A stretch of DNA of 25,353 nucleotides from a virus. Taxonomy: Duplodnaviria > Caudoviricetes. The notes beneath the pieces were generated by a model that had not been told where the DNA came from, made no database searches, and was given only the letters and a program-made list of their open reading frames with translations. The stretch covers positions 1 to 25,353 of the IMG/VR virus record IMGVR_UViG_3300025818_000167, one strand, 5' to 3'. Below are positions 2 to 22,176 of this stretch, one piece after another. A program made the position numbers and the translations under genes. Numbering within the stretch: position 1 is the first letter of the stretch; each line of letters begins with the position of its first letter.

Positions 2-100
2 TTTGTTACTAAAAGAGATTTTTCACTGAATGAAAAATTTTTTAAAAACAAAAAAGAAGCGGAACGCTTTTATAACAAAATAAAGAAAAAAATAAATTAA
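2..100 (+). CDS. 3' end of a hypothetical phage protein (partial; ...FVTKRDFSLNEKFFKNKKEAERFYNKIKKKIN*)
   Basis: Open frame from the window edge to TAA at 98-100, same strand as the next gene; translated by hand. Confidence 0.55.
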   Translation, partial: FVTKRDFSLNEKFFKNKKEAERFYNKIKKKIN

Positions 101-107
101 GTATTTA

Positions 108-151
108 TGAATACCTGCTCAGTCGGGTATTCACCAATACTTAAGTATTGG
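108..151 (+). promoter_or_regulatory. Two abutting hairpins in the leader of the DUF932 gene
   Basis: TGAATACC (108-115) pairs with GGTATTCA (126-133); directly followed by the perfect 18-bp palindrome CCAATACTTAAGTATTGG (134-151). Confidence 0.55.
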
Positions 152-183
152 ATTACATAAACAATAATAATGGAGAAATAAAT

Positions 184-1287
184 ATGTCTAATAAAATAAA
201 GACGACTATGAACGTAGAACAGTTGCTGACAAGCCTTAGAGATTTGTCTCAACAAAAGCAAGACTACATCGTAAGGACTAACGCTATGCATATGCATGGT
301 GGTGAGAATGGTTTGATTTTAGATTTAAATAAATCAAATCATGATGGAACACTATACGCGCTTAACAGTCATGCTCTCGGACAAATGTCTACTACGTTCC
401 AAGTTCCTCGACCCTATGTCGATAGAATGATGGCTTCCGATCCTCAAATCGTAGCAACCAATTTTAACCATTGGTTTAAAAATGCGGATGACAATCAAGC
501 TAAGATGATCCGTACCCATGAATTAAAAGATGGTGCTAAATTCTTAGTTAGAGCATTTTTATCGGACAAGTATCGCAGAGTAGATAATGATGAGATTGCC
601 TCTACTGTACTGCCAATACTTCTTGATAAAAATAACGATTGGGAAATAACCGAATGTCAGATAACTGACACCAAGTTATACATCAAGGCAGTTGCAACCA
701 ATTTAATAGCAGAAGTTAAAAAAGGTGACGTTGTAAAATACGGCGTGATCATTTCTAATTCTGAAGTTGGAAGTGGTGCAATCAATGTTAAGCCTTTTCT
801 ACATAGATGCGTCTGTGATAATGGATTAATCATTGCAGACAATTCTATGAGAGCAACCCATCTCACCTCATCTCAAGCTGATGACAAACTTTGGTCAATG
901 CTATCGGATCAAACAAAGACCGATGACAACAGACTACTACTTCAAAAAGTTAAAGACGTAGTTTATCACACCGCAGACAAATCTAACTTTGAAGTGCAAG
1001 TGGATAGACTCAAAGAAGCAGATGGAGTGATCATCCACAAGCCTCAAGAAGCAGTGAAAGTTTTAAAACAAACTTTTAATTTTACTGAATTGGAGCATGA
1101 CTCGATTTTAACAAACTTAATTAATCGAGTGGATGAAGTTGCGGGAAACAATGTCACCAAGTGGACATTGGCAAATGCGGTGACTCATTTAGCGCATGAG
1201 ACTGAGGACTACGATAGAGGAATTGAGTACGAGACAATTGGTGATAAAATTTTAAATTTACCAAACTCAATATTGCAAGTCGCTTAA
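184..1287 (+). CDS. DUF932/DUF945-family phage protein
   Basis: Motifs VRAFLSDKYRRVDN, GVIISNSEVGSGA and CVCDNGLI are typical of DUF932. Start reassigned to ATG 184, preceded by GGAG at 172-175. Confidence 0.8.
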   Translation: MSNKIKTTMNVEQLLTSLRDLSQQKQDYIVRTNAMHMHGGENGLILDLNKSNHDGTLYALNSHALGQMSTTFQVPRPYVDRMMASDPQIVATNFNHWFKNADDNQAKMIRTHELKDGAKFLVRAFLSDKYRRVDNDEIASTVLPILLDKNNDWEITECQITDTKLYIKAVATNLIAEVKKGDVVKYGVIISNSEVGSGAINVKPFLHRCVCDNGLIIADNSMRATHLTSSQADDKLWSMLSDQTKTDDNRLLLQKVKDVVYHTADKSNFEVQVDRLKEADGVIIHKPQEAVKVLKQTFNFTELEHDSILTNLINRVDEVAGNNVTKWTLANAVTHLAHETEDYDRGIEYETIGDKILNLPNSILQVA

Positions 1288-6693: not shown

Positions 6694-7035
6694 AGTAAAA
6701 GTAAAGTTTATGTTATTCAAAAAGTATTAAGAAAGCATATTGACGGAACACTAAGAGGTTTAGATTTTTCTCAAGCGGAAAGATTTGGTGAAGTTATCTA
6801 TTTATTTGATAGTCAAAAGCAAGTTGTTATGTCTCCGCAGCCCACTATTCGTAAAATAAAACAAATCCTAAAAGACTTTAAAGACAACGATTATTTGGTC
6901 TTAGTAGGAGATCCTGCACTTATAGGCTTGACATGTTCGGTTGTAAGCACTATATGTAATGGTAGATATAATATGTTAAAATATGATAGATTAGAAAGAG
7001 ATTACTTTCCTATCAGAGTTGACATACACGAATAA
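6685..7035 (+). CDS. Conserved phage hypothetical protein (alpha/beta fold predicted)
   Basis: Start moved to ATG 6685 to avoid overlap with the SNF2 gene; DYLVLVGDP...LKYDR pattern recalled from similar phage replication modules. Confidence 0.7.
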   Translation: MSESKSKVYVIQKVLRKHIDGTLRGLDFSQAERFGEVIYLFDSQKQVVMSPQPTIRKIKQILKDFKDNDYLVLVGDPALIGLTCSVVSTICNGRYNMLKYDRLERDYFPIRVDIHE

Positions 7036-7596: not shown

Positions 7597-8454
7597 ATGT
7601 CAGAGAACAGTAAAAAACAAGTAGCGAAAGAAGAAAAGAAAAGCATAGCAGTGTTTGATAATTCAATTCTCAAAAAGGCTGGATCATCACTTAGTGAGAG
7701 AGGCGCAGAAGATTATCAAATACCTTATCTATCAATTATTGCATCTACATCCCCTCAAAGAAAAAAGAACGACTCTAAATATATTGAGGGAGCAGAGGAA
7801 GGTAAAATCTTCAATAACGTAACAAACAAGTTATATGATGAGATTACAGTTCTTCCTGTTTACTATAGAAGAAGATATGTAGAGTGGCACTCTGATAGAT
7901 CAAAAGCAACATCACCTATTAATACTTACACCATCGATCAATATGAAAAACTAAAGAGAGAAGGTAAGATTGTTAGAGGTGACGACAATAAAGAGAGAAT
8001 AGTAGGCGGAGATACCTATGTAGAAAATACCGCCGAACATTATGTAATAGTGTTGGAAGATGATGGAAGTTGGAACCAAGCTATTATTAAAATGAAATCT
8101 ACTCAGTTGAAAAAATCTAGAACATGGAATTCAATAATGGCAAATCAAAGAAGAGTTGATGGTGATCAAATCTATCAACCTAAAGATTTTGCAAGATCAT
8201 ACAAACTGACCACCCACTCCGATGGAAACGATAAGGGTGATTGGTATGGTTGGGTTATTAATCAAGACAAATGGATTGATGAAATTGATAATCCTAATCT
8301 TCAAAAGATTTTTGAGGATGCCATTAAATTTGAAAAAGCAATTCATAAGGGTGACGTCTCTGGTGTTGAAGACGATTTCTCTGTTGAAACAAGTTCCCCA
8401 GTTAATGGGGAAGCCTCCAAAAGTGGTTCATCCGATGAGGATCTACCATTTTAA
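7597..8454 (+). CDS. Putative single-stranded DNA-binding protein
   Basis: IPYL...SPQ...GAEEG...YVEW family pattern, flexible acidic tail ending DEDLPF, located before the primase. Confidence 0.7.
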   Translation: MSENSKKQVAKEEKKSIAVFDNSILKKAGSSLSERGAEDYQIPYLSIIASTSPQRKKNDSKYIEGAEEGKIFNNVTNKLYDEITVLPVYYRRRYVEWHSDRSKATSPINTYTIDQYEKLKREGKIVRGDDNKERIVGGDTYVENTAEHYVIVLEDDGSWNQAIIKMKSTQLKKSRTWNSIMANQRRVDGDQIYQPKDFARSYKLTTHSDGNDKGDWYGWVINQDKWIDEIDNPNLQKIFEDAIKFEKAIHKGDVSGVEDDFSVETSSPVNGEASKSGSSDEDLPF

Positions 8455-8469
8455 ATAACGCACTAGCGG

Positions 8470-8535
8470 ATGATACGGCAGTTTTCAGGCATATTTTTTT
8501 CTCCTCGCTTAAAATAACTATAGCTGTCGTATCAT
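8470..8535 (+). ncRNA. Candidate structured RNA hairpin with anti-Shine-Dalgarno loop
   Basis: ATGATACGGCAGTT (8470-8483) pairs with AGCTGTCGTATCAT (8522-8535) using two G-U pairs that work only on the + strand; apical region ATATTTTTTTCTCCTC. Confidence 0.55.
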
Positions 8536-8553
8536 TTATTATGGAGCCAAATA

Positions 8554-10110
8554 ATGAATGATGCGTTAATAGAAAAATTTAAAAATATATTTACTGGTCT
8601 CGAAAGAGCACACGGTATTTTTGAAAAATTAAACGAGCCTCAAAAAGGTAAAAAACTTGAGGCTCGAATGACCACTGTCCACGAGCCGCCAACCATTGAT
8701 AAGTATGCTCGACACTTGAAAGGTGAATATCCTGGATTGGGTATTGTACCTATCAACGATAATAATGAATGTATATTCGGTGCAATTGATATCGATGTAT
8801 ATCCATTAAATCATCAAGATTTACAGAAAAAAGTAAAAGACAAAAAGTTTCCCTTAGTAATGTGTTTGTCTAAAAGCGGTGGAGCACACTTGTATATGTT
8901 CCTAAATAAACCAGTTCCCGCTAAAGAACTACAATTAAAATTAAGTGAAATGGCAACCGCACTTGGATACCCTAAGGCAGAAGTATTTCCTAAGCAGATA
9001 GAATTATCCGCTAGAGAGGGAGAGCAGAAAAGGGATACAGGTAGTTGGATTAATCTTCCCTATCATGGAAGAAATAGGTATGCATTAAAGGAAGACGGTT
9101 CGGGTGCTACCTTAGAACAGTTTCTTGCGCTGTACGACTCCTTCGTTATCAGTGATCTGTCTGGTATTAAGACAGATTTCAAGAATGAAGTTATCAAGGA
9201 TGGACCTCCTTGCTTACAAATACTAACAGAACAGGGTGTTTCTGATGGCTCAAGGAACAATGCGCTGTTTAATGTGGGAGTATTTTATAGGAAGTCTAGT
9301 CCTGATAACTTCAGAGAATTATTAGAAGATTATAATAGAGTCTATGTTAATCCTCCTTTAAATGCGGATGAGGTTTTAACTGTTATTAAACAAATATCAC
9401 AAAGCGATAGTAATGGCGCACCTAAGTATATGTATCGATGTACTCAGCCTCCCATTGAGTCTTTGTGTAATAAGCGATTATGTAAAAAGAGAAAGTTTGG
9501 TATTGGCGGTGACTCCGATAGAGAGCATCCTGTGTATTCTGACTTAAAAGTTTATAAGTCTGATCCACCAAGATACTTCTTAAATGTCGATGACAGAAGA
9601 GTAGAGATATCCAATACAGAAGACTTAATGAACCATCGTAAGATTATTCAAGCATGCCTAGAACAGTTGAATACAGGTATCATGAATATGAGTGCCGCTG
9701 AATGGAATAGAACTTACTCTGAGTTATTTGAAAGTATTTCAATTGATTATCCTCCCGAGGAAGTAACAAAGAAGGGTGAGTTTAAAGAATTACTGGAAGA
9801 GTTTTGCTTACATCAGGGTGAAGCATTAAGTTTTGATGATATCTTTTTAGGTAAGTCTTATACAGAAGAAGGTTTTACTTATTTTGCTTTAAAAGATTTA
9901 ATGGATCATTTAAAGAGAAATGATTTTAAAGAGGCAAGACCTTGGGTAACAGTAAGGCTAAGAGAAGAATATGCTGCTGAAGACTTAATTAAAACTGTAA
10001 AGAATGTAAGAATTCGTTTATGGAAAATAAATCAGCTTACTGTAGATGAACCCGAATTAGATATTCCTAATATGGAAAAAGAAATAAATGAAGAGGAGAT
10101 ACCATTTTGA
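8554..10110 (+). CDS. Archaeo-eukaryotic-type primase (prim-pol) with PriCT-like domain
   Basis: GAIDID (DxD), SKSGGAHLY (motif II), WINLPY (motif III), GSRNNALF PriCT motif and Cys cluster; GGAG RBS at 8543. Confidence 0.85.
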   Translation: MNDALIEKFKNIFTGLERAHGIFEKLNEPQKGKKLEARMTTVHEPPTIDKYARHLKGEYPGLGIVPINDNNECIFGAIDIDVYPLNHQDLQKKVKDKKFPLVMCLSKSGGAHLYMFLNKPVPAKELQLKLSEMATALGYPKAEVFPKQIELSAREGEQKRDTGSWINLPYHGRNRYALKEDGSGATLEQFLALYDSFVISDLSGIKTDFKNEVIKDGPPCLQILTEQGVSDGSRNNALFNVGVFYRKSSPDNFRELLEDYNRVYVNPPLNADEVLTVIKQISQSDSNGAPKYMYRCTQPPIESLCNKRLCKKRKFGIGGDSDREHPVYSDLKVYKSDPPRYFLNVDDRRVEISNTEDLMNHRKIIQACLEQLNTGIMNMSAAEWNRTYSELFESISIDYPPEEVTKKGEFKELLEEFCLHQGEALSFDDIFLGKSYTEEGFTYFALKDLMDHLKRNDFKEARPWVTVRLREEYAAEDLIKTVKNVRIRLWKINQLTVDEPELDIPNMEKEINEEEIPF

Positions 10111-11558
10111 TAAAAGTATTATTTGGAAATAGCTTTGAGAAAGTAAAAGATTTAGAGGACAACTCTATTGACTGTGTTGTCTCTTCTCCTCCCTACTTTG
10201 GTTTGAGAGATTATGGCAATGATAATCAAATGGGTTTAGAAAAGCATTATAAAGATTATATACAAAACACTGTTAATCTTTTTAGGTTAATGAAACCAAA
10301 ACTAAAAGATCAAGCAACTATTTGGTGGAATGTAGGGGATAGCTATTATAATTACAGACCGACAAGAAATAAAGAAGGTTTATATAAGTCTCCCGATTAC
10401 CATAAACAAACAATTAGTAGCAACAGACAAGACCTGCCCACTAAAGGAAGTAAAAGAGGAATTGTTTTTGAAGATATCAAAGAAAAAGATTTAATGATGA
10501 TTCCTAATAGAGTTGCAATTGCATTACAGGAAGACGGGTGGTATGTGAGATCAGAGATTATTTGGCATAAACCTAATCCGATGCCAGAGAGTGTTAGAGA
10601 TAGACCAACATCATGTCATGAAAAAATATGGTTAATCACAAAGAATAAATCTTATTACTATGATCATGAGGCAATTAAAGAGGAAGCAAAGACCTCTCCT
10701 GTTCTAAGAAACAAAATGGCAGAGGGTTATCAAGCTGACTATCCTAATGGTAAAAGATTTAGTGAGGGAGAAAGAGTTTGGGGAGCAGAAAAGAAAAACA
10801 AAAGAAATGTTTGGAGTGTTACTACAAAACCGTTTAAGGGAGCACACTTTGCAACATTTCCTCCCGACTTGATTGAGCCTTGTATCTTAGCGGGGTGTCC
10901 AGAAAAGGTTTGTGCTAATTGTGATGAACCTTATATTAATAAACCAATTTATAAATACATCAGCAAAACATCAAGCAAGGGCAATAAACATGGGAAATAT
11001 GGTAATCAAGAGATTGAATCAGCAAATAGACAAGGTTTACATTCCAACAGAGGTAATAAATTAATTGAAGTTAGAGATAATTTACCAAAACAGTCTATTT
11101 TTGTTAATTTTTTAAGAAGTAAAACTAATGCAAAAATATTGGCTGAAAATACAAATATAAAATTAACTAAAATAGAGCATTGGTTTAGAAGTGATAAATT
11201 GGGATTTGCATACCCAAGCATTGATGATTGGAAACAAGTAAGAGATTTTGTTGATGATTGGTCAAAGGAGTTTGCAGAAATAGATAATTCTTTAATGACA
11301 TACGAATTAAAATCTGATGCAGTCGAATCTAAAAAACTTATTGGCTATGAGTTAAAAAAACAATGCGATTGCCAAACTAATGAAACTAAGAGTGGAACAG
11401 TTTTAGATCCTTTTGGTGGATCTGGTACAACAGGATTGGTTGCTCATCGACATAAAAGAAATGCTATATTGATCGAACTTAACAGGGAATACAAAGAAGT
11501 AATGAAATTAAGATTTAGTAAAGAGGGAGCTTTATTATTACAGGTGCAGTATGAGTAA
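10107..11558 (+). CDS. Site-specific DNA methyltransferase (N4/N6 family, beta class) with a large internal insertion
   Basis: SSPPYFGLRDYG catalytic motif, IIWHKPNPMPESVRDR, HFATFP, and C-terminal VLDPFGGSGTT SAM motif; TTG start with GAGGAG RBS. Confidence 0.92.
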   Translation: MIKVLFGNSFEKVKDLEDNSIDCVVSSPPYFGLRDYGNDNQMGLEKHYKDYIQNTVNLFRLMKPKLKDQATIWWNVGDSYYNYRPTRNKEGLYKSPDYHKQTISSNRQDLPTKGSKRGIVFEDIKEKDLMMIPNRVAIALQEDGWYVRSEIIWHKPNPMPESVRDRPTSCHEKIWLITKNKSYYYDHEAIKEEAKTSPVLRNKMAEGYQADYPNGKRFSEGERVWGAEKKNKRNVWSVTTKPFKGAHFATFPPDLIEPCILAGCPEKVCANCDEPYINKPIYKYISKTSSKGNKHGKYGNQEIESANRQGLHSNRGNKLIEVRDNLPKQSIFVNFLRSKTNAKILAENTNIKLTKIEHWFRSDKLGFAYPSIDDWKQVRDFVDDWSKEFAEIDNSLMTYELKSDAVESKKLIGYELKKQCDCQTNETKSGTVLDPFGGSGTTGLVAHRHKRNAILIELNREYKEVMKLRFSKEGALLLQVQYE

Positions 11559-13140
11559 ACCTATTGTTGTCATCGGACCGCCAGGCACGGGAAAAACAAC
11601 ATTTATATTAAATAAAATAGAGGAGTATATAGCAGATGGTTACAGTATCGATGATATTGGTTTCTTTTCTTTTTCTAACAAGGCTGTTGACGAAGCAAAA
11701 CAAAGAGCCAGTCAGAAATTCAAAATACCGACATCACAACTAGAAAACTTTAGTACTTTACATTCGTATGCCTTACGTCAGTTAGGTTTAAGTAGAGACT
11801 ATATTATGAGTAAAAATGATTGGAGAAATGTAGAAGATGTACTTAGGATTAAAATTAATGTTAATAACGATGACGATAGTTTTTACAACAACTACGATGA
11901 TAAATATATTCAACTTATAGAGAAATCAAAAAGAAGAAACATTGACCTGAGAGATTGTTGGACAATGTTTGCTAAGGATATTATTTATCACAAGCTAGAA
12001 TACATTGATAAAGGTTTAAAAGAATACAAGAGAAAAGGATATGAATTATTTACTGATGGAGTAAAGGGTAACTTTGTTAAGGATGCAGGTCCTAAAATGG
12101 ATTTCACAGACTTGATAATGGACTTTGTAAAAAATAATAGAGTAAAACCTTTAAGAGTTGTTTTCTTTGATGAGTCTCAAGATATGTCCACGATCCAGTG
12201 GAAGATGGCAGAGATGATTTGGGATGCGTCTGAGATATCCTATATAGCAATGGATCCAAACCAAGCTATTTATACTTGGGCTGATGCCGATGTATCCAAA
12301 GCAATAGAAGTAAAGACAAAAGCAGAACAGACTATTGTTTTAGATAAATCAAAGAGAGTACCAAGAAAGATATGGGAAGTTGTAAACAGAGTAGAAGAAC
12401 AGATTATAGCCTACGATGATATTAAATGGGAGCCTGCCGAGAGAGACGGAAGTGTAGAATTTGTTAAAGGTGTTTATCATTTAAATATGTCCGATGGCAG
12501 CTGGCTGGTGATGGGTAGAACTAGAACCATTAGAGAAGACCTAGAAGAAGTTTTAAGAAAAAAGAATGTCTTCTTTCGTGTTAAGATGAGAGATAATAAA
12601 TATAGATACTCTGTCAAAGCACAGGAGAGAAACGCTATTTTAACTTGGAAAGAGTTAATGAGAAGCGAGACAAATGAAGTTCCTATTAAATTAGTTGATA
12701 ACTTATATAAAACTATTGGAAAAGAGTATGTTGCTAGAGGATTTAAAAAAGTAGTAGCAGAACAGAAGAAAGCTTTTCCTGATAAAAAAGTTTCTTTTAA
12801 AGAACTAAAAGAAAGTTTCGGACTTATATCAGAGTTTGGAACATCATGGGTGGATGTGATGACAACTATCGATACAGAAACTCGTGCATATTTGGAGAAC
12901 CTAGAATCGAGAGGCGAGGACATAGGAAACGAGCCAAGGATAACTTTGTCTACCATTCATCAACAAAAGGGTGGAGAGGCTGACAATGTTATTGTCTCTT
13001 TAGATATAGGTAAAATGGCTTACGATGATTATCGAGTCAATCCAATTAACGAACATCGATTATTTTATGTGGCGTTCTCTAGAGCAAAACATAATTTATA
13101 TATCGTACTACCACAATCAAGGGAGGCTTATAGAATATGA
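11551..13140 (+). CDS. UvrD/Rep-like superfamily 1 helicase
   Basis: GPPGTGKTT, TLHS, DESQD, DPNQAIY, STIHQQKGGEAD and YVAFSRAK motifs. Confidence 0.92.
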   Translation: MSKPIVVIGPPGTGKTTFILNKIEEYIADGYSIDDIGFFSFSNKAVDEAKQRASQKFKIPTSQLENFSTLHSYALRQLGLSRDYIMSKNDWRNVEDVLRIKINVNNDDDSFYNNYDDKYIQLIEKSKRRNIDLRDCWTMFAKDIIYHKLEYIDKGLKEYKRKGYELFTDGVKGNFVKDAGPKMDFTDLIMDFVKNNRVKPLRVVFFDESQDMSTIQWKMAEMIWDASEISYIAMDPNQAIYTWADADVSKAIEVKTKAEQTIVLDKSKRVPRKIWEVVNRVEEQIIAYDDIKWEPAERDGSVEFVKGVYHLNMSDGSWLVMGRTRTIREDLEEVLRKKNVFFRVKMRDNKYRYSVKAQERNAILTWKELMRSETNEVPIKLVDNLYKTIGKEYVARGFKKVVAEQKKAFPDKKVSFKELKESFGLISEFGTSWVDVMTTIDTETRAYLENLESRGEDIGNEPRITLSTIHQQKGGEADNVIVSLDIGKMAYDDYRVNPINEHRLFYVAFSRAKHNLYIVLPQSREAYRI

Positions 13141-13397
13141 ACTTACAAGAATTAAAAGATCGCGGTCTTTTAGATGAAGAGATAATAAAGTGGGATGGAT
13201 TTGATGAATGTGTTTTAGGAATCGGATCTAGATGTGGCATGGAAGATGTTCTTGTTTATAGCAAGAAAAAGATTGCCTACACTTTAAGAGACAGAGACGA
13301 AATGACGGTGGAGGATGCTCTAGAGTATATTGATTTCAATATATTGGGAGCATATGTGGGAGAAAGAACACCAATTATTTTGGAGGATTTTATATGA
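13137..13397 (+). CDS. Conserved phage hypothetical protein
   Basis: DGFD...VY...ALEYIDFNILGAYVGERTP pattern; ATGA overlaps on both sides. Confidence 0.75.
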   Translation: MNLQELKDRGLLDEEIIKWDGFDECVLGIGSRCGMEDVLVYSKKKIAYTLRDRDEMTVEDALEYIDFNILGAYVGERTPIILEDFI

Positions 13398-15274
13398 GTA
13401 AACAAATAGGAATGTTTAAACCTAAGTCAGAGTGGATTGCACCAATGGAATTCCCTGACATTAAAGATGCAAAAAGAATTGCAATAGACTTAGAAACAAA
13501 AGACCCCAGTATCGTGGATAAAGGACCTGGATGGGCAACAAATGATGGACACATTATTGGTGTGGCTGTTGCTGTAGATGGTTGGGAAGCATATTACCCT
13601 ATTCGACATGAGGCAGGATTTAATCACGCACCTGAGATAGTTTTTGATTGGTTAAATGAAATGCTATCGGGAGAGGGGGATAAAATAGCACACAATGCAT
13701 CCTACGACTTCGGTTGGTTAAAAGCGGAAGGTGTAAAGTGGAATGGCAGGATTATTGATACAATGATTGCCGCTCCGTTAATTAATGAAAACAAATACAG
13801 CTACGCTTTAAACTCTTTGTCTAAAGAATATTTAGAAGAAAGTAAAAATGAGTTTCTTTTAAATGAAACGGCAGCACAGTGGGGAGTTAATCCTAAAAGT
13901 GAGATGTATAAGATACCCTCTCAGTATGTGGGAGAGTATGCAGAGCAAGACGCTGTCCTCTGTTTAAAGTTATGGGATCGACTAAGTGTAGAGATAACTA
14001 AATTAAACTTAGAAACTGTTTTTAATTTAGAAACAGAACTTCTTCCTATTCTTATTGATATGAGAATGAAAGGAGTCAGAGTTGATTTAGATAAATTAAA
14101 GATTGCTGAAAAAGAACTAGTTAGTAGAGAAAACAAACTATTAAAGTTTGTCCACGATGAGACAGGCGGTAAGGTAGATATCTGGGCAGCCAGATCGATT
14201 TCCTCTATTTTTGATTTATGTAAGATAGATTATCCTAAAACAGAAAAAGGTAATCCATCCTTTACAAAATCTTTCTTAGATAATCATCCTCATCCTATTC
14301 CCAAAGCTATTGTTCAAGCGAGAGAGTTCAACAAAGCGCGAACCACTTTCCTCCAAACGATAGAAAAGTATAATCACAATGGAAGAATACACGCCAATAT
14401 TAATCAGCTACGAACAGAGAACGGCGGAACGGTGACAGGAAGATTTAGTTATTCTAATCCTAACCTTCAGCAGATACCTGCTCGAGACAGTGCCGAAGCT
14501 GATTTAAAAATAGGAACAATGATCAGAGGATTGTTTTTACCTGAAGAGGGAGAGAAGTGGGGTTCCTTTGACTATTCTCAGCAGGAACCACGATTAGTTG
14601 TCCATTATGCTGATTTTATAGGTTTAGACGGATCAGAAAAGCTCGTAGAAGCCTATAGGAGTGATAAAAACACTGACTTCCATACGATCATGGCGGAGAT
14701 TGGAAAAATCAAACGTAAGGCTGCTAAAACCATAAATTTGGGGTTATTCTATGGTATGGGGGTAGGAAAACTAGCAGATCAGCTAGGAATTGACCCTGAG
14801 GAAGCAAGAACCATTATTAATGAATATAATCAGAGAGTTCCGTTTGTAAGGAAGCTTGCAGACCGAGTCGCTGACCACGCTTCGCGGACAGGGAAGATCA
14901 AAACCTTTTTAGGTAGACGATGTCATTTTGATTTGTGGGAACCTAAAACTTTTGGAGTACACAAAGCATATCCACTCGAAAAGGCTAAAGAGGAACACGG
15001 AGAGAATATACCCTTAAAGAGAGCGGGAACTTACAAAGCTTTAAATAGATTAATTCAAGGAAGCGCAGCAGATCAAACAAAGATGGCTATGATTAATTTA
15101 TATAAAGAGGGAATTGTTCCTATGATTCAAATCCACGATGAGTTAGCCATCAGTTTTGATGGTAGCGAAGAAAAGCAAAATAAAATCATAGAGTGTATGG
15201 AGAACGCAATAGACTTAAACATACCCTCAAAGGTCGATGTGGCAGTCGGTAATAACTGGGGAGAAACTCAATGA
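13394..15274 (+). CDS. polA: DNA polymerase family A with 3'-5' exonuclease domain
   Basis: ExoI DLET, ExoII HNASYD, ExoIII YAEQD; TGRFSYSNPNLQQIP; motif A DYSQQEPR; motif B RKAAKTINLGLFYG; motif C QIHDEL. Confidence 0.96.
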   Translation: MSKQIGMFKPKSEWIAPMEFPDIKDAKRIAIDLETKDPSIVDKGPGWATNDGHIIGVAVAVDGWEAYYPIRHEAGFNHAPEIVFDWLNEMLSGEGDKIAHNASYDFGWLKAEGVKWNGRIIDTMIAAPLINENKYSYALNSLSKEYLEESKNEFLLNETAAQWGVNPKSEMYKIPSQYVGEYAEQDAVLCLKLWDRLSVEITKLNLETVFNLETELLPILIDMRMKGVRVDLDKLKIAEKELVSRENKLLKFVHDETGGKVDIWAARSISSIFDLCKIDYPKTEKGNPSFTKSFLDNHPHPIPKAIVQAREFNKARTTFLQTIEKYNHNGRIHANINQLRTENGGTVTGRFSYSNPNLQQIPARDSAEADLKIGTMIRGLFLPEEGEKWGSFDYSQQEPRLVVHYADFIGLDGSEKLVEAYRSDKNTDFHTIMAEIGKIKRKAAKTINLGLFYGMGVGKLADQLGIDPEEARTIINEYNQRVPFVRKLADRVADHASRTGKIKTFLGRRCHFDLWEPKTFGVHKAYPLEKAKEEHGENIPLKRAGTYKALNRLIQGSAADQTKMAMINLYKEGIVPMIQIHDELAISFDGSEEKQNKIIECMENAIDLNIPSKVDVAVGNNWGETQ

Positions 15275-15477
15275 GAATATTATATCAGGATGGTAGACTG
15301 TATGTCAGTTTAACTAGAGATGAAATAAAACAAGCTAGCGACAGCATAGGTATGCCGTTAGAACTTCCAATTGGTCAGTTAAAAATATTTCAAGAAGATA
15401 TTAACAAGGCTGTCTTACAGCACTGGACTAAAGTAGAAGTTAAAAGGGAAGTCGAAAAACATAAAAGGAAGGATTAA
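15271..15477 (+). CDS. Hypothetical protein
   Basis: 68 aa; GGGAG RBS and ATGA overlap with polA. Confidence 0.7.
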   Translation: MRILYQDGRLYVSLTRDEIKQASDSIGMPLELPIGQLKIFQEDINKAVLQHWTKVEVKREVEKHKRKD

Positions 15478-15489
15478 AAACCTTCCTTT
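15455..15489. terminator. Hairpin terminator, possibly bidirectional
   Basis: AAAGGAAGG (15464-15472) / CCTTCCTTT (15481-15489); the U-rich tail is better on the minus strand. Confidence 0.55.
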
Positions 15490-15506
15490 ATTGATTTAGC
15501 TAAGTT

Positions 15507-15633
15507 CTTAAATAAATGGTAACGACAGTTATTAGATTAATTGTTATTTGCAAGTGACACTAAACCTAATAATCTTTTTACAAACATACAACAATTACCT
15601 TCCTGTATATTTATATTTAAGGTCGTTACCATT
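15507..15633 (-). ncRNA. Candidate structured RNA, possibly encoding a 16-aa peptide
   Basis: Perfect 12-bp inverted repeat AATGGTAACGAC (15515-15526) / GTCGTTACCATT (15622-15633) enclosing nested stems; minus-strand extended -10 (TGATATATT) upstream and terminator downstream. Confidence 0.45.
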
Positions 15634-15757
15634 CTGACTAATAATATATCATATCTGATCTGCAAAATAAACACTTCTTAATTTTTTTTCTGTGGATATA
15701 TTTCTGTTATGCACGTTTATACAGACGAAGACTTACAATTTATTAACGGAGATAATA

Positions 15758-15934
15758 ATGTTTAATTTAACTAAAAGATCAATGAACCACTTCTTAAACT
15801 TTTTTAAAAAAGAAGATAAAGACAAAGAAATAAAAGACTATTGCCAAGCTGAATATAAAAAAGATTGGTATGCTGCTTATATGACCTTCAAAGAAGAAGG
15901 TAAATTCCCTAACTTTATTAGAAGAACGCTTTAG
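15758..15934 (+). CDS. Small hypothetical protein (58 aa, YCQAEYKKDW motif)
   Basis: GGAG RBS at 15748 supports ATG 15758; stop abuts the lysozyme stop. Confidence 0.7.
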   Translation: MFNLTKRSMNHFLNFFKKEDKDKEIKDYCQAEYKKDWYAAYMTFKEEGKFPNFIRRTL

Positions 15935-15948
15935 TTAAGCGTTCTCTA
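15919..15948. terminator. Hairpin at the convergent gene junction
   Basis: AGAACGCTT (15923-15931) / AAGCGTTCT (15937-15945), centred on the two abutting stop codons. Confidence 0.55.
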
Positions 15949-16396
15949 CAATTTCAGCTAAGGCTTCGCATCTCACAGGAGTTTGCGAATGCCATCTGGA
16001 ATCTTTCATTTGAGCTGCTGCTTCTTTTTTATCGCCTTTAGATAACGCTTCCCACATCTTACGGAACTTAGATACGCCATTTTGGCCAAGCTGAAAAACC
16101 ATTTCTACAATCACATGTTCAATTGCCTGTGGCAATCTTCTATCACCTTTGTACATTTGACCAATCAATTGTTCTGCACCAGCACACGCTCTATTTAAAT
16201 CTATTAAAAATAAATCTTCTATTTCATCTCTTGAAATAGTTGCTCCCTCTTTAAATCTTTCCTTTTCGTGTGGTTGTACCAAATGTCCTATTCCGACAGT
16301 GGGCAGTCCTAGCGAATCTAAATAGACGGTCTCTTCACAACCTTCATGGTCACGAATTCTAGCCTTCAGTTCATCAGTAATTTTAATTGTATTCAT
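15935..16396 (-). CDS. Phage lysozyme (GH24, T4-like endolysin)
   Basis: HEGCEETVYLDSLGLPTVGIGHL carries the E-x8-D-x5-T catalytic triad; MVFQLG and DSRW...TPVR motifs. Confidence 0.92.
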   Translation of the reverse strand: MNTIKITDELKARIRDHEGCEETVYLDSLGLPTVGIGHLVQPHEKERFKEGATISRDEIEDLFLIDLNRACAGAEQLIGQMYKGDRRLPQAIEHVIVEMVFQLGQNGVSKFRKMWEALSKGDKKEAAAQMKDSRWHSQTPVRCEALAEIVENA

Positions 16397-16482
16397 TTTG
16401 CACCTATTCCCCAGTTTTCTTCGTGGGGATCTTTTTCTACCTTTCTTTTAAATATGTTTATAATAAATTGAATTAATTTCAT
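16393..16482 (-). CDS. 29-aa peptide MKLIQFIINIFKRKVEKDPHEENWGIGAK (not in the ORF track)
   Basis: Fills the gap exactly: ATG directly follows the upstream TAA and its TGA overlaps the lysozyme ATG. Confidence 0.65.
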   Translation of the reverse strand: MKLIQFIINIFKRKVEKDPHEENWGIGAK

Positions 16483-17472
16483 TTATCTTAGTTTATAACC
16501 TAAACCAGCGTATTTGTCTACACTTCCTCCGTTTTTTGCATAATAATAATTATCTTGTTGTTCTAAATAACTGGGATTTCTACTACTCATTAAGTTATTT
16601 GATACAGGGACATCGTATCCCTGACTGTTTAAATAAATATTACCTAAAGTATTGTTAGAATCATAGTAATCAGGAACAGAACCTATTCCATAAGAATATC
16701 CCTCAGGTAAATATCCACTGCTTAAAGGGATAGAGTTTATTCCTCCGTATCCCTCAGGGATAAAACCAGTATTTAATGGAGTACTAGCAACGGGTTGAGC
16801 AATAGACACAGGAATATTCATTCCTCTATCATTTTCCACAGGAATCTGTGTATCAATTTCTTGATTGTATCCACCAAAATATCCTCTAGCTTCAGGACTA
16901 ACTCTAGGAAATTGAGTTTCAATTCCTTGAGGTGTTTGACTAGGACTAAAAAATCCTCTGACCTTGTTCCACGCATCGCTAACAGCGTTTCCTATTTTTA
17001 AAGCTGTACTAATATAAGGAATACCAAAATTTTCTAGTAAACCAGGTTGACGAACTATTTGACCACCTGTTGTAGTGGCAATTCCTTGAGCATTTGGATC
17101 ATAAGAAAGTGTATTATATCCTGAGAAAGCTCTACCTACGTCTCCCATTAATTGTTTTATAGTAGGAGCCTGCGCTGTAAAAAATCTTTCTTTTCCTGTT
17201 ACAGGGTCTTTATAGTAAGTAGAAGCTAAAGGTGTTCCTACTTTATTTACTTCCTCCCCATAAGCTTCTCTAAAGGTTGCTGGTCTATCGTATTTAACAT
17301 TAGCTTGTTTGTATTCTTTAGCTAAATCACTAAATTTTTTATCACTACCAATTTTTTCTGCAAATCTAGTAGCATCTCTTATTTCAGAAACAGCACTTTT
17401 ACTAAGGCTTTTACCTTTTCCGCCTGTTTCGCTAGCTCTTCTTGCAGCTAATCTATCTTTTACACTTGCCAT
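16483..17472 (-). CDS. Putative internal virion/ejection protein
   Basis: 329 aa, Gly/Ser/Tyr-rich C-terminal half, YAKNGG motif, position in the late operon. Confidence 0.6.
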   Translation of the reverse strand: MASVKDRLAARRASETGGKGKSLSKSAVSEIRDATRFAEKIGSDKKFSDLAKEYKQANVKYDRPATFREAYGEEVNKVGTPLASTYYKDPVTGKERFFTAQAPTIKQLMGDVGRAFSGYNTLSYDPNAQGIATTTGGQIVRQPGLLENFGIPYISTALKIGNAVSDAWNKVRGFFSPSQTPQGIETQFPRVSPEARGYFGGYNQEIDTQIPVENDRGMNIPVSIAQPVASTPLNTGFIPEGYGGINSIPLSSGYLPEGYSYGIGSVPDYYDSNNTLGNIYLNSQGYDVPVSNNLMSSRNPSYLEQQDNYYYAKNGGSVDKYAGLGYKLR

Positions 17473-19862: not shown

Positions 19863-22176
19863 TAGGCTTCTTCAATATATCTAGAGCTTTTTCTTCGTCT
19901 TCTTCTGATGTAGTTTTTCCCATAGTATAGGGGGCTAACATCTTGTTAACTTCATCGGTGTAGTCCATAATAGAATTTTCTATGTATTGAGTAGGAAGAT
20001 TATATCCTAATGCTAAATTTTTGTATCTCATGTCTACGTTTTGCTGTACTTGCCAAGATTTTTCAAAAAGTACTCTAGCGGTATTAACAAAGTCTTCTCT
20101 AATCTCAGGAGCTAATGCTTCACCGTCTAAAGCTTTATTAAACTGTGCTCTAATTCTAGATGGAATACTTCCAGCATTTGCCGCTGTTGCATATTCGCTT
20201 TCTCTTACAACAGACTGAGGATCCAGTAATTTCATGAATTGGAATATTAATGCTACGTCTCCAGCAGCAGATGGATCTTCTGCTTTTGCCTTAATTGTTT
20301 CAAATTTATTTTTCATTTTAACAAACTCTTCAGATGCCTTAGTGTGTTCTTCTCTAATTTTATTGGACTGTTGTATAAAGAAGGCTTTCTTTTCCTCAGG
20401 GTCTTTAAAAACCATATCTAAATACTTTTGAGGATCTAATAATATTTGACTTCTCAGCTCCTCTGTTAGCTCTCCATCTTCCTCTAATTTAGTTATTAAA
20501 GTTTGAGGAATAGATTGTTTTAATTTTGTGTTACTTCTCTCTACGTCTTTTTCAGCTTTTATTTCTCCATATAAAACCTGATCAATAGGCTGCCCTGTTC
20601 TTTTATTAAGGAGCATTCCTGTATAAGGGTCGGTTATAAACTCTTCCTCTCTGAAAATAGATTTAACCATTTCACCACCTACTAACTCAGAAAACTTATT
20701 TAATCTATCCTGCTGTGCCTTTTTTTCATCGGCAGCCATACTTAACGCTGCTTTCTTGTAAGGCTCTTTTAATTGACTTACTGTTGCCCCGTATCTTCCT
20801 ACATCGCTAAATGCTTCAGGAATAACTTGACTCATTTCTTTTTCTGGGTCTAGAATATTTGCAGCAATATTTGCTAAATAAGGAGAGGCATACAATAATG
20901 CCTGATTTTTTAAATCAGCTCTATCTAATAATTGTTTTTCTATTTCGCCACTTCTTTGAACTATATCTATAGGAGCATCTCCATAACCAAAGAACTCTTT
21001 ACCAAAACCTATAAGATCCTCTCCACCAAGGTTTCTCATATCCTGTCCATCAACAAAAATACTACCTGCCGCTCTAACGATCCCACCATTTTGTGGATTC
21101 ATTAATTGATCGGATGCCATGGGAGGCATCATTGTTTGTGCCTGATCAGTAGACGCAATTCCCTCTTTTTCTTGTAATTCAAACACTGGCTGGACTAAAG
21201 CTAATACAGATAGAGGAGTATCTCTTGCGTCTTTCTCTCCAACTGTCATTGCCAGTTCTTGGACTCTTCCCTCTAAGGGAACATCATCACCGCGAACCTC
21301 GTTCATTAATTGTACATACTGCTCAGGGGAAACCTTTGCAATACCATCGTCACTCGATCCGCTTTCCGCGGTCATCGAAACTTCTTCCTCTGAATCTAAT
21401 CCATCGGCAATACCAACCGCATCCACTGTCTCGCCTTCCATGGGAGATCCCTCTGCTCTGTTTTTTAATCTATTTAAATAGTTTAATTCTTGTTCAGGAA
21501 TCTCAAAAGGTTTAGGCTCAAGAGCGCCCTTCTCTTTCATTTCGTTTGAAATTTTATAATTAGTAAACTCATTCATTAAATTTGTAAGATAACTAAAGTT
21601 ATCAGGAGTATTGCCTTGTAAAAGAAGATCTAAAATACTTAGTCCTTTATCTCCATAAGAATCCATTAAAAAACTTTGAAACTCAGGATCATTAACAATT
21701 AAAGTATATTGATCTACTTGATCTTCTGTAGGCATTTCACCTTCTCTCACTACAGAATTAGGATCAATACCTCTTTTATATTCACCTTCTCTCACTACAG
21801 AATTAGGATCTAATAGATTTAATAAACTAGACATCTGCTTTTCTGTAGGCATTTCACCTTCTCTTACTACAGAATAAGGATCAGAACTTATTAATTTATT
21901 ATATTCTTTTTTAATTGAATCAGGTACATCTATAGTATTTGCAGCAGTCATGTATTCGCCTTCTCTGACTGTGCTTCTTGGGTCTAATAAATTCATTAAA
22001 CCAGATACTTGATCCTCTGTTAATGGCTCTCCATATCTTAGACGAGAGTTAGGATCTATTTTTAAAAAATGATTATACAAGGCAGCCGATTGTGCTGGGG
22101 TCATGTATTCACCCTCCCTCATTACCATTCTAGGATCAAAAGAAAACATTGATCTATTAAAAATTGAATCTGCCAT
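19855..22176 (-). CDS. Putative DNA-transfer/ejection protein with N-terminal repeats
   Basis: 773 aa; C-terminal DVALIFQFMKLLDPQSVVRESE motif recalled from phage ejection proteins; six N-terminal DPxSVVREGE-like repeats. Confidence 0.7.
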   Translation of the reverse strand: MADSIFNRSMFSFDPRMVMREGEYMTPAQSAALYNHFLKIDPNSRLRYGEPLTEDQVSGLMNLLDPRSTVREGEYMTAANTIDVPDSIKKEYNKLISSDPYSVVREGEMPTEKQMSSLLNLLDPNSVVREGEYKRGIDPNSVVREGEMPTEDQVDQYTLIVNDPEFQSFLMDSYGDKGLSILDLLLQGNTPDNFSYLTNLMNEFTNYKISNEMKEKGALEPKPFEIPEQELNYLNRLKNRAEGSPMEGETVDAVGIADGLDSEEEVSMTAESGSSDDGIAKVSPEQYVQLMNEVRGDDVPLEGRVQELAMTVGEKDARDTPLSVLALVQPVFELQEKEGIASTDQAQTMMPPMASDQLMNPQNGGIVRAAGSIFVDGQDMRNLGGEDLIGFGKEFFGYGDAPIDIVQRSGEIEKQLLDRADLKNQALLYASPYLANIAANILDPEKEMSQVIPEAFSDVGRYGATVSQLKEPYKKAALSMAADEKKAQQDRLNKFSELVGGEMVKSIFREEEFITDPYTGMLLNKRTGQPIDQVLYGEIKAEKDVERSNTKLKQSIPQTLITKLEEDGELTEELRSQILLDPQKYLDMVFKDPEEKKAFFIQQSNKIREEHTKASEEFVKMKNKFETIKAKAEDPSAAGDVALIFQFMKLLDPQSVVRESEYATAANAGSIPSRIRAQFNKALDGEALAPEIREDFVNTARVLFEKSWQVQQNVDMRYKNLALGYNLPTQYIENSIMDYTDEVNKMLAPYTMGKTTSEEDEEKALDILKKPNG
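21715..22137 (-). repeat. Intragenic coding repeats (6 x DPxSVVREGE-like)
   Basis: 30-bp identical DNA copies at 21736-21765 and 21781-21810, a 2-mismatch copy at 21853-21882, and three more diverged copies toward the gene start. Confidence 0.9.

Follow-up and report, generated by a model that had tools for sequence, protein, structure and literature searches.

A conserved hairpin behind the predicted SSB gene of a tailed-phage clade, with a loop complementary to a repeated early translation-start motif

Gene content of the window

The DNA analyzed here is a 25,353-nucleotide stretch of a tailed phage (IMG/VR record IMGVR_UViG_3300025818_000167; the window). From left to right, it contains putative early genes, a SNF2 helicase gene on the minus strand, and genes resembling gp32, gp33, and gp34 of Pam3; downstream of the gp34-like gene lie genes for an AEP primase, a methylase, a UvrD helicase, and DNA polymerase A, and the virion genes are on the minus strand. 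The label early was assigned from gene position. We infer that the gp34-like product is a single-strand-binding protein (SSB) because of its acidic tail, which ends in DLPF, and because its gene precedes that of the primase (Table 1). The window primase is 39% identical to that of DSL-LC04, which has the same gene order from helicase to polymerase, 37% identical to that of 023Pt_psg01, and 29-30% identical to those of pelagiphages HTVC027P/023P. The nearest record overlaps the window only at positions 11590-16548. When genome contigs were searched for a host, the single match was an uninformative 1.8-kb contig in a metagenome bin, and a promoter scan of the window gave no signal above background (29 found versus 38.6 in shuffles).

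Between the DUF932 gene and the next gene (1446-1603), a run of ∼30 T residues is followed by three direct repeats spaced 32 nt apart, possibly an origin or a regulatory array. The DNA methylase gene (10107-11558) encodes 483 amino acids with a split Pfam match, and the corresponding ORF of L001 and L243 encodes 321, which suggests an insertion in the window gene. A 773-aa gene of the virion region has six imperfect 35-nt repeats (21719-22140 and 20192-20226) that encode a DPxSVVREGE-like peptide.

Table 1. Positions of the genes and sequence elements considered in this analysis
Feature	Position	Strand	Basis
Hairpin of the extended early leader (-20.4 kcal/mol); overlaps an 18-bp palindrome (134-151)	97..151	+	Fold, repeat search, relatives
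Predicted target: early start motif GGAGAAATAAATATG, shared within the clade, with codon 2; upstream of DUF932	172..189	+	Pairing, start ranking, relatives
DUF932 gene, 367 aa, putative early	184..1287	+	PF06067 (E=1e-10); phrog_1362
Pam3 gp34-like gene, predicted SSB; the hairpin would be the 3′ UTR of its mRNA	7597..8454	+	PF23977 (Pam3_Gp34)
Nine-codon micro-ORF, judged incidental	8463..8492	-	Found only in the window; Met-stop in one relative, no ATG in six
Hairpin directly 3′ of the predicted SSB stop; candidate 3′-UTR anti-RBS RNA	8470..8535	+	Fold, pairing, relatives
Clade-conserved stem	8472-8485/8520-8533	+	Alignment of 8
Variable 5′ loop extension; here predicted to pair with the remaining spacer, AUG, and codon 2 of the target	8487..8495	+	Pairing
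Conserved loop core, complement of GGAGAAATA	8496..8504	+	Alignment of 8
Tail rich in U, TTTATTAT; may be a 3′ end or leaky terminator	8535..8542	+	Sequence
AEP-type primase gene, own SD GGAG at 8543-8546	8554..10110	+	PF22548, weak PriCT_1, phrog_21866

A hairpin directly follows the predicted SSB gene

The hairpin begins 15 nt past the SSB-like stop codon. The outer stem put forward in the preliminary description (8470-8483/8522-8535) is paired at 14 of 14 positions, including the wobble pairs G8478-U8527 and U8482-G8523. The plus strand folds at -18.0 kcal/mol (z=-4.85), a value that 0 of 200 shuffles equaled, and the minus strand at -12.3 kcal/mol (z=-2.24), equaled by 9 of 200. The inner stem proposed earlier (8482-8490/8507-8514) is absent from both the minimum free energy and the centroid structures; a weak A-U helix (8492-8497/8511-8516) is predicted in its place, with UUUCUCCUCGCUU left open. 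In this predicted structure, the UUUCUCC core is open and the weak helix takes in part of the 5′ extension. A terminator scan of the window did not call the hairpin, owing to its long loop, and Rfam searches of the window (E<=5), four clade-B loci (E<=2), and nine distant loci returned nothing meaningful.

Stem and loop core are conserved in clade A

Scans of viral and metagenome contigs recovered 121 loci with both the SSB-like and the primase gene and 37 distinct spacers, which were assigned to clade A (8, the window included), clade B (19), clade C (9), and DSL-LC04. In a quick primase tree of 34 rows, from which L239 was left out because its primase is truncated, support was 98 for clade A and 99 for clade B, and the window came first within A.

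The hairpin and its complementary loop, previously seen in one sequence, are conserved across all 8 clade-A members as a long hairpin with a loop of ∼35-40 nt, and interrupted U-rich tails like TTTATTAT are present in 7 of them. In the 8-sequence alignment, 99.1% of 108 stem cells are paired, compared with 35-53% in slid controls, and none of 500 shuffles was as high. The stem also covaries, with 4 of 14 pairs changed on both sides, largely in one divergent sequence (L247), and 4 changed on one side. G-U pairs occupy 17 of the 108 cells and would be A-C mismatches if read on the minus strand, which fixes the plus strand; as RNA, the plus strand is favored in 7 of the 8 members.

Within the loop, 8 of the 9 core columns are invariant, compared with 2 of the 31 other loop columns (Fisher p=5e-6, computed on related sequences), and the invariant core coincides with the stretch complementary to the target motif. 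The core reads TATTTCTCC in 7 of the 8 members, the window being the exception.

A model built from the clade-A elements and run against 38 sources (620 kb) recovered only its two training copies and detected none outside clade A, from which we take the element to be single-copy in the loci searched. A hairpin pattern scan returned mostly unrelated phages and no added clade-A spacer, and with model R1 the clade-B three-stem fold was not detected.

All 9 clade-C spacers are short, terminator-like hairpins that have no anti-SD loop. Among distant relatives (73 loci, primase 36-43% identical), each of the 66 distinct spacers listed folds at -15.5 kcal/mol or below, mostly as plain terminator-like hairpins, many with U tails. 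The hairpins of clade C and of the distant relatives suggest that a 3′-end hairpin behind the SSB-like gene is the ancestral state.

The loop is complementary to the DUF932 start in the window

The preliminary description had noted that the loop is complementary to the start of the DUF932 gene, 8.3 kb away. Positions 8487-8504 indeed pair with 172-189 at 17 of 18 positions (16 Watson-Crick pairs and 1 G-U, with 1 U-U mismatch, which is due to the T at window position 8497), and the paired stretch runs from the SD through the spacer and the AUG to codon 2. After opening energies are taken into account, no other of the 27 window starts scores as well as that of DUF932 (-15.2 kcal/mol, compared with -13.6 kcal/mol for the next two). 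The primase start, which had been described as a poor match, pairs with the window loop at -5.9 kcal/mol, compared with -16.4 kcal/mol for a motif start; across clade A, cis pairing to the primase start is weak as well (-5 to -7 versus -13 to -17 kcal/mol).

By itself, the raw 17-of-18 match is at chance level for a search of the whole window: 27% of 300 dinucleotide-shuffled loops score equally well somewhere in it, and the predicted binding of the loop is slightly stronger at two unrelated 30-nt segments. When the comparison is confined to the 32 annotated starts, an equal score is reached by 2 of 300 shuffles, or by 15 of 1000 that retain the CUCC core (0.7-1.5%), so the match is unusual at a start site, though weak on its own. 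The seven clade-A loops with TATTTCTCC form 9-12 contiguous Watson-Crick pairs with the motif and the window loop forms 7, compensating its shorter core pairing by extending over the AUG.

A 13-nt match between the 3′ half of the window loop and methyltransferase codons 3-7 was treated as chance. The 3′ loop half is also complementary, over at least 10 nt, to sequence immediately 5′ of the gp33-like SD in the same operon in 4 of the 8 clade-A phages (window 7012-7030 was compared with the equivalents in L001, L008, L239, and L243). This candidate was rejected, since the target is unchanged in 3 of the 4 phages that lost the match and covariation is absent; the window is altered at both sites, and pairing is not restored.

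The core matches a start motif shared by early genes of clade A

The DUF932 start is identical in 5 phages and has one A fewer in a sixth. The same motif, GGAGAAATA, precedes ∼six different clade-A early proteins, with 4, 4, 4, 3, 3, and 2 copies in the six contigs that include the early region. The window and L001 have one copy each and include only 0.2 and 1.2 kb upstream of DUF932, respectively; other copies are not visible in the window because it starts 183 nt upstream of that gene. Motif genes share upstream inverted repeats that are related to the leader at window 97..151. No copy was found in three clade-A records, which are 38-44% complete and whose loci stop 6.5 kb or less upstream of the spacer, before DUF932 is reached.

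Among distinct GGAG-containing starts, GGAGAAATA is present at 13 of the 28 early starts of clade A, none of the clade's 21 other starts, 4 of 140 clade-B starts, and 0 of 85 clade-C starts (4 of 246 GGAG-type starts outside the clade-A early set), counts that include orthologous starts and are thus not independent. This amounts to an enrichment of ∼30-fold in the clade's own early starts. In 10 of 10 clade-A loci checked, the reversed copy of the motif is the hairpin loop; 5 of the 10 have one or two extra minus-strand copies of GGAGAAA[AT]A in the late-gene region, with no start in the 13 nt that follow.

The fit of clade-A loops to the early starts of their own clade exceeds expectation in 39 of 40 cells. 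When the core is held fixed in shuffles, all 8 clade-A loops beat the mean against these starts; the window (p=0.007) and L243 (p=0.04) do so significantly, and the other 6 are not individually significant (p 0.09-0.26). Of the cognate loci, L243 includes the most early DNA. When its 21 starts are ranked against its own loop, motif genes take the first three places, the third being DUF932; in L001, DUF932 ranks second of 26. Based on these comparative data, an antisense RNA from the replication operon that would aim at early starts is supported, and DUF932 as its only target is not, because the motif at its start also precedes other genes, ∼six in all. The caveat in the preliminary description, that the targets may be several early genes, is the better reading. 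Against the antisense reading, GGAG with an A-rich spacer is a common form of phage early start and a generic strong start.

Sister clades have different spacers and different early motifs

In clade B, the spacer contains two hairpins within an invariant 7-bp stem, a three-way junction, and an alignment of 15 of the 19 sequences has two-sided changes at 9 of 21 pairs. The second loop contains CCTCCTTT in 19 of 19 spacers and fits the GGAGGC-type early starts of clades B and C better than those of clade A; it may also pair in cis with the primase RBS (-7 to -13.5 kcal/mol). By computed pairing, each of the two sister clades has a loop that matches its own, different early motif, a contrast that rests on two clades and so amounts to two independent points.

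Loop and target thus match at the level of clades, and no covariation of the two was seen between strains. In a cognate test within clade B, a phage's own targets rank at random (mean 4.25 and 4.75 of 8), and within clade A compensation is invisible because the motif is nearly invariant. A tblastn search of clade-B loci found no DUF932, nor did a search of five records run without a positive control (0 of 5).

In one clade-B phage, 25 nt of hairpin 1 are perfectly complementary to the end of an early ORF (L021:712-736 and L021:9889-9913), 18 nt upstream of a 20-codon hydrophobic ORF. Nothing comparable appeared among the matches listed for the other clade-B phages, and this one may have arisen by recent inverted copying or mark a specific target. 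The clade-B early region also contains a conserved 9-codon micro-ORF (L023:1177-1215, L036:1473, L038:948) with a strong AAAGGAGGC SD and a structured leader; the second spacer loop is complementary to 10 nt at this site.

Of the clades, C repeats its early leader most strongly. In 12-21 kb per phage, with L427 excluded, no non-coding loop complementary to this repeated motif was found; the reversed-motif matches are coding (Gln-Pro-Pro in the primase) and were rejected. The leader occurs in up to nine copies per locus, and its SD (AGGAG) lies in the loop of a 4-5-bp hairpin (L031:360-2570 and its equivalents in L080, L059, L081, and L228), which could be a protein-binding or processing site.

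Interpretation of the hairpin

The hairpin element is conserved, and the earlier antisense idea holds, as a prediction from sequence, in a multi-target form. We consider it probable (roughly 55%) that the hairpin is a 3′-UTR anti-RBS RNA that would act in trans on a set of early genes. The fold, the covariation of the stem, the conservation of the core, the repetition of the motif, and the clade-level match of loop and motif are all observed. In the proposed mechanism, the gp32-gp33-SSB transcript would often end or be trimmed at the hairpin, which would descend from the terminator-like hairpin still found at this site in relatives. Either the 3′ end itself, being abundant, or a fragment freed from it would expose the open U/C-rich core, which would seed on GGAGAAAUA and extend across the AUG or the upstream A-rich stretch, with 12-18 predicted pairs. 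Loading of the 30S subunit would then be blocked, and the early mRNAs might decay faster. Early protein synthesis would fall once the replication operon is transcribed, with DUF932 as one target among several.

A more tentative generalization is that these phages have repeatedly remodeled the terminator-like hairpin behind the SSB gene, making of it a programmable anti-RBS RNA that mirrors their own early tag, so that the replication transcript would silence the whole tagged regulon. Equally tentatively, such RNAs could take the form of one hairpin in clade A and of a two-loop junction in clade B.

The strongest competing explanation, which we regard as unlikely, is an ordinary 3′-end hairpin, a leaky terminator or stabilizer that would set the SSB:primase ratio, with a non-pairing loop that is either an old inverted copy of the leader or a protein or nuclease site. 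It draws on the hairpins in 66 of 66 distinct distant spacers, many with U tails, on the 9 of 9 clade-C spacers that are short and have no anti-SD loop, and on the inverted match in L021, which shows that loops can copy early-region DNA. A terminator role is probably true alongside the anti-RBS explanation. What the ordinary hairpin leaves unexplained is why 9 invariant, motif-complementary nucleotides persist amid a changing loop and stem, and why two clades each have a loop matching their own early motif.

We think it improbable that the element is a general anti-Shine-Dalgarno device directed mainly at host mRNAs, a host shut-off like that of the cuckoo RNAs, with the fit to phage early genes as a side effect. 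The two pyrimidine-rich loops on the clade-B junction, the second with CCUCCUUUC, and the lack of cognate preference within clade B would suit such a role, and CCUCCUUUC resembles the 3′ tail of 16S rRNA. In clade A, however, the core UUUCUCC complements GGAGAAA, not GGAGG, and matches a motif enriched ∼30-fold in the clade's early starts.

Plasmid ssi hairpins offer an analogy for a single-stranded DNA hairpin that the adjacent AEP/PriCT primase or the SSB would recognize as a priming signal or origin. The element directly precedes an AEP primase with a weak PriCT-1 match, and it still folds as DNA (-11.5 kcal/mol). This explanation is nevertheless hard to maintain: tandem G-U pairs are conserved; the DNA folds of the two strands are about equal in most clade-A members, whereas RNA favors the plus strand in 7 of 8; primases that are 75-80% identical adjoin unrelated hairpins in clades B and C; and the motif match is left unexplained.

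A dedicated antisense RNA for the DUF932 mRNA alone is very improbable. That gene ranks first of 27 in the window, and in 4 of 8 relatives the 3′ loop half can pair with ACATAAAC upstream of the DUF932 SD, but the motif precedes ∼six genes, two other motif genes outscore DUF932 in L243, and clade B has anti-SD loops with no DUF932 found in the loci and records searched. Least probable of all is a functional minus strand, either as a decoy RNA displaying the motif to titrate a protein or as an RBS and micro-ORF: the SD and nine codons (MPENCRIIR) described earlier can be read in the window, but the ORF is missing from 7 of the 8 clade members, and 17 stem cells become A-C mismatches on that strand.

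Comparison with known systems

A literature search, mostly of papers outside subscription, found no account of this hairpin element or of a lytic-phage RNA directed against a shared early RBS. P22 Sar is a phage antisense RNA that serves as one comparison. Small RNAs derived from 3′ UTRs arise as discrete RNAs from mRNA 3′ ends by processing or from an internal promoter, and the position of the hairpin just past the SSB-like stop would fit such an origin. The intrinsic terminator form (short GC-rich stem, 3-8-nt loop, and U tract) is found at this site in relatives; the clade-A hairpin has a long loop and, in 7 of 8 members, an interrupted U-rich tail. The comparisons that follow refer to the systems as described in the accessible parts of the papers cited.

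In Cluster K mycobacteriophages, the SAS/ESAS sequences are a repeated extended-SD motif found before non-structural genes at 11-19 copies per genome; some of the copies are preceded by inverted repeats, and one reversed copy lies away from gene starts (PMC3203893). That paper leaves open whether the SAS binder is RNA or protein, and its accessible part describes the reversed copy without placing it in a hairpin loop or proposing an antisense role (PMC3203893). Clade A likewise has a repeated extended SD before non-structural genes (13 of 28 versus 0 of 21) of ∼six families, with upstream inverted repeats; a reversed copy lies in the hairpin loop, and 5 of the 10 loci checked have further minus-strand matches. 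It differs in that motif sequence and phage group are unrelated, the Cluster K consensus is not matched, and there are 2-4 copies per contig.

The C4 RNA of P1/P7 is cut from a longer phage transcript, and its loops pair at a ribosome-binding site (PMC5320573, PMC12197685). The window loop similarly complements the ribosome-binding region of a phage mRNA, by computation only, and clade B has a three-way junction with two loops. Unlike C4, the elements gave no Rfam C4 match (window at E<=5, four clade-B loci at E<=2); clade A has a single long hairpin, not a three-stem fold with loops a′ and b′; and the setting is a replication operon rather than immunity, with several predicted targets, that in the window 8.3 kb away. 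C4 is processed by RNase P and represses an antirepressor operon; a scan of 31 window proteins found no antirepressor or repressor.

The cuckoo/CcsR (RSs0680) sRNAs of Alphaproteobacteria present an anti-SD motif in hairpin loops (PMC4615179). An anti-SD loop motif is shared here, and clade B has two adjacent stem-loops, but there is no CCUCCUCCC loop motif (the clade-A core is UUUCUCC and that of clade B is CCUCCUUU) and no Rfam match, clade A has a single hairpin, and the elements are phage-encoded. The T4 RegB consensus is GGAGRAYARAA, and the outcome predicted here would be similar, with early mRNAs that carry GGAG and an A-rich spacer inactivated at the translation start (PMC3014915); RegB is a protein nuclease, whereas the reader here would be an RNA. 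In Staphylococcus aureus icaR, a 3′-UTR motif pairs with the SD and blocks initiation (PMC3868564), but there the pairing is with the mRNA's own 5′ UTR, whereas the predicted targets of the hairpin are other transcripts.

Early shut-off in T4, the best-studied lytic phage, relies on a protein nuclease, and C4 controls one immunity operon. If the anti-RBS reading is true, the hairpin RNA would read one tag on many early mRNAs and so tie early shut-off to replication with no protein involved, in phages that have received little study. On the broader reading, it would represent an RNA counterpart of T4 RegB and suggest a mechanism for start-associated sequences, the function of which has been open since 2011. 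The sister clades, with their different loop and motif pairs, provide a natural swap comparison.

Other hairpins at related loci

In a distant lineage, the pre-primase spacers of L258, L263, L266, L267, L271, L273, L275, L278, L282, L285, L300, and L315 share a conserved frame, GGGCCGAA...GTAGGCC. This frame holds a variable inserted hairpin, which we take to be loop-E-like, with C-rich loops in three members; an Rfam search of the spacer from L266 gave no match. At the end of the SSB-like gene (window 8418-8452, L008:6172-6207, and L239), the final codons themselves fold as a hairpin in many relatives, and two clade-A phages have a second, similar hairpin past the SSB-like stop.
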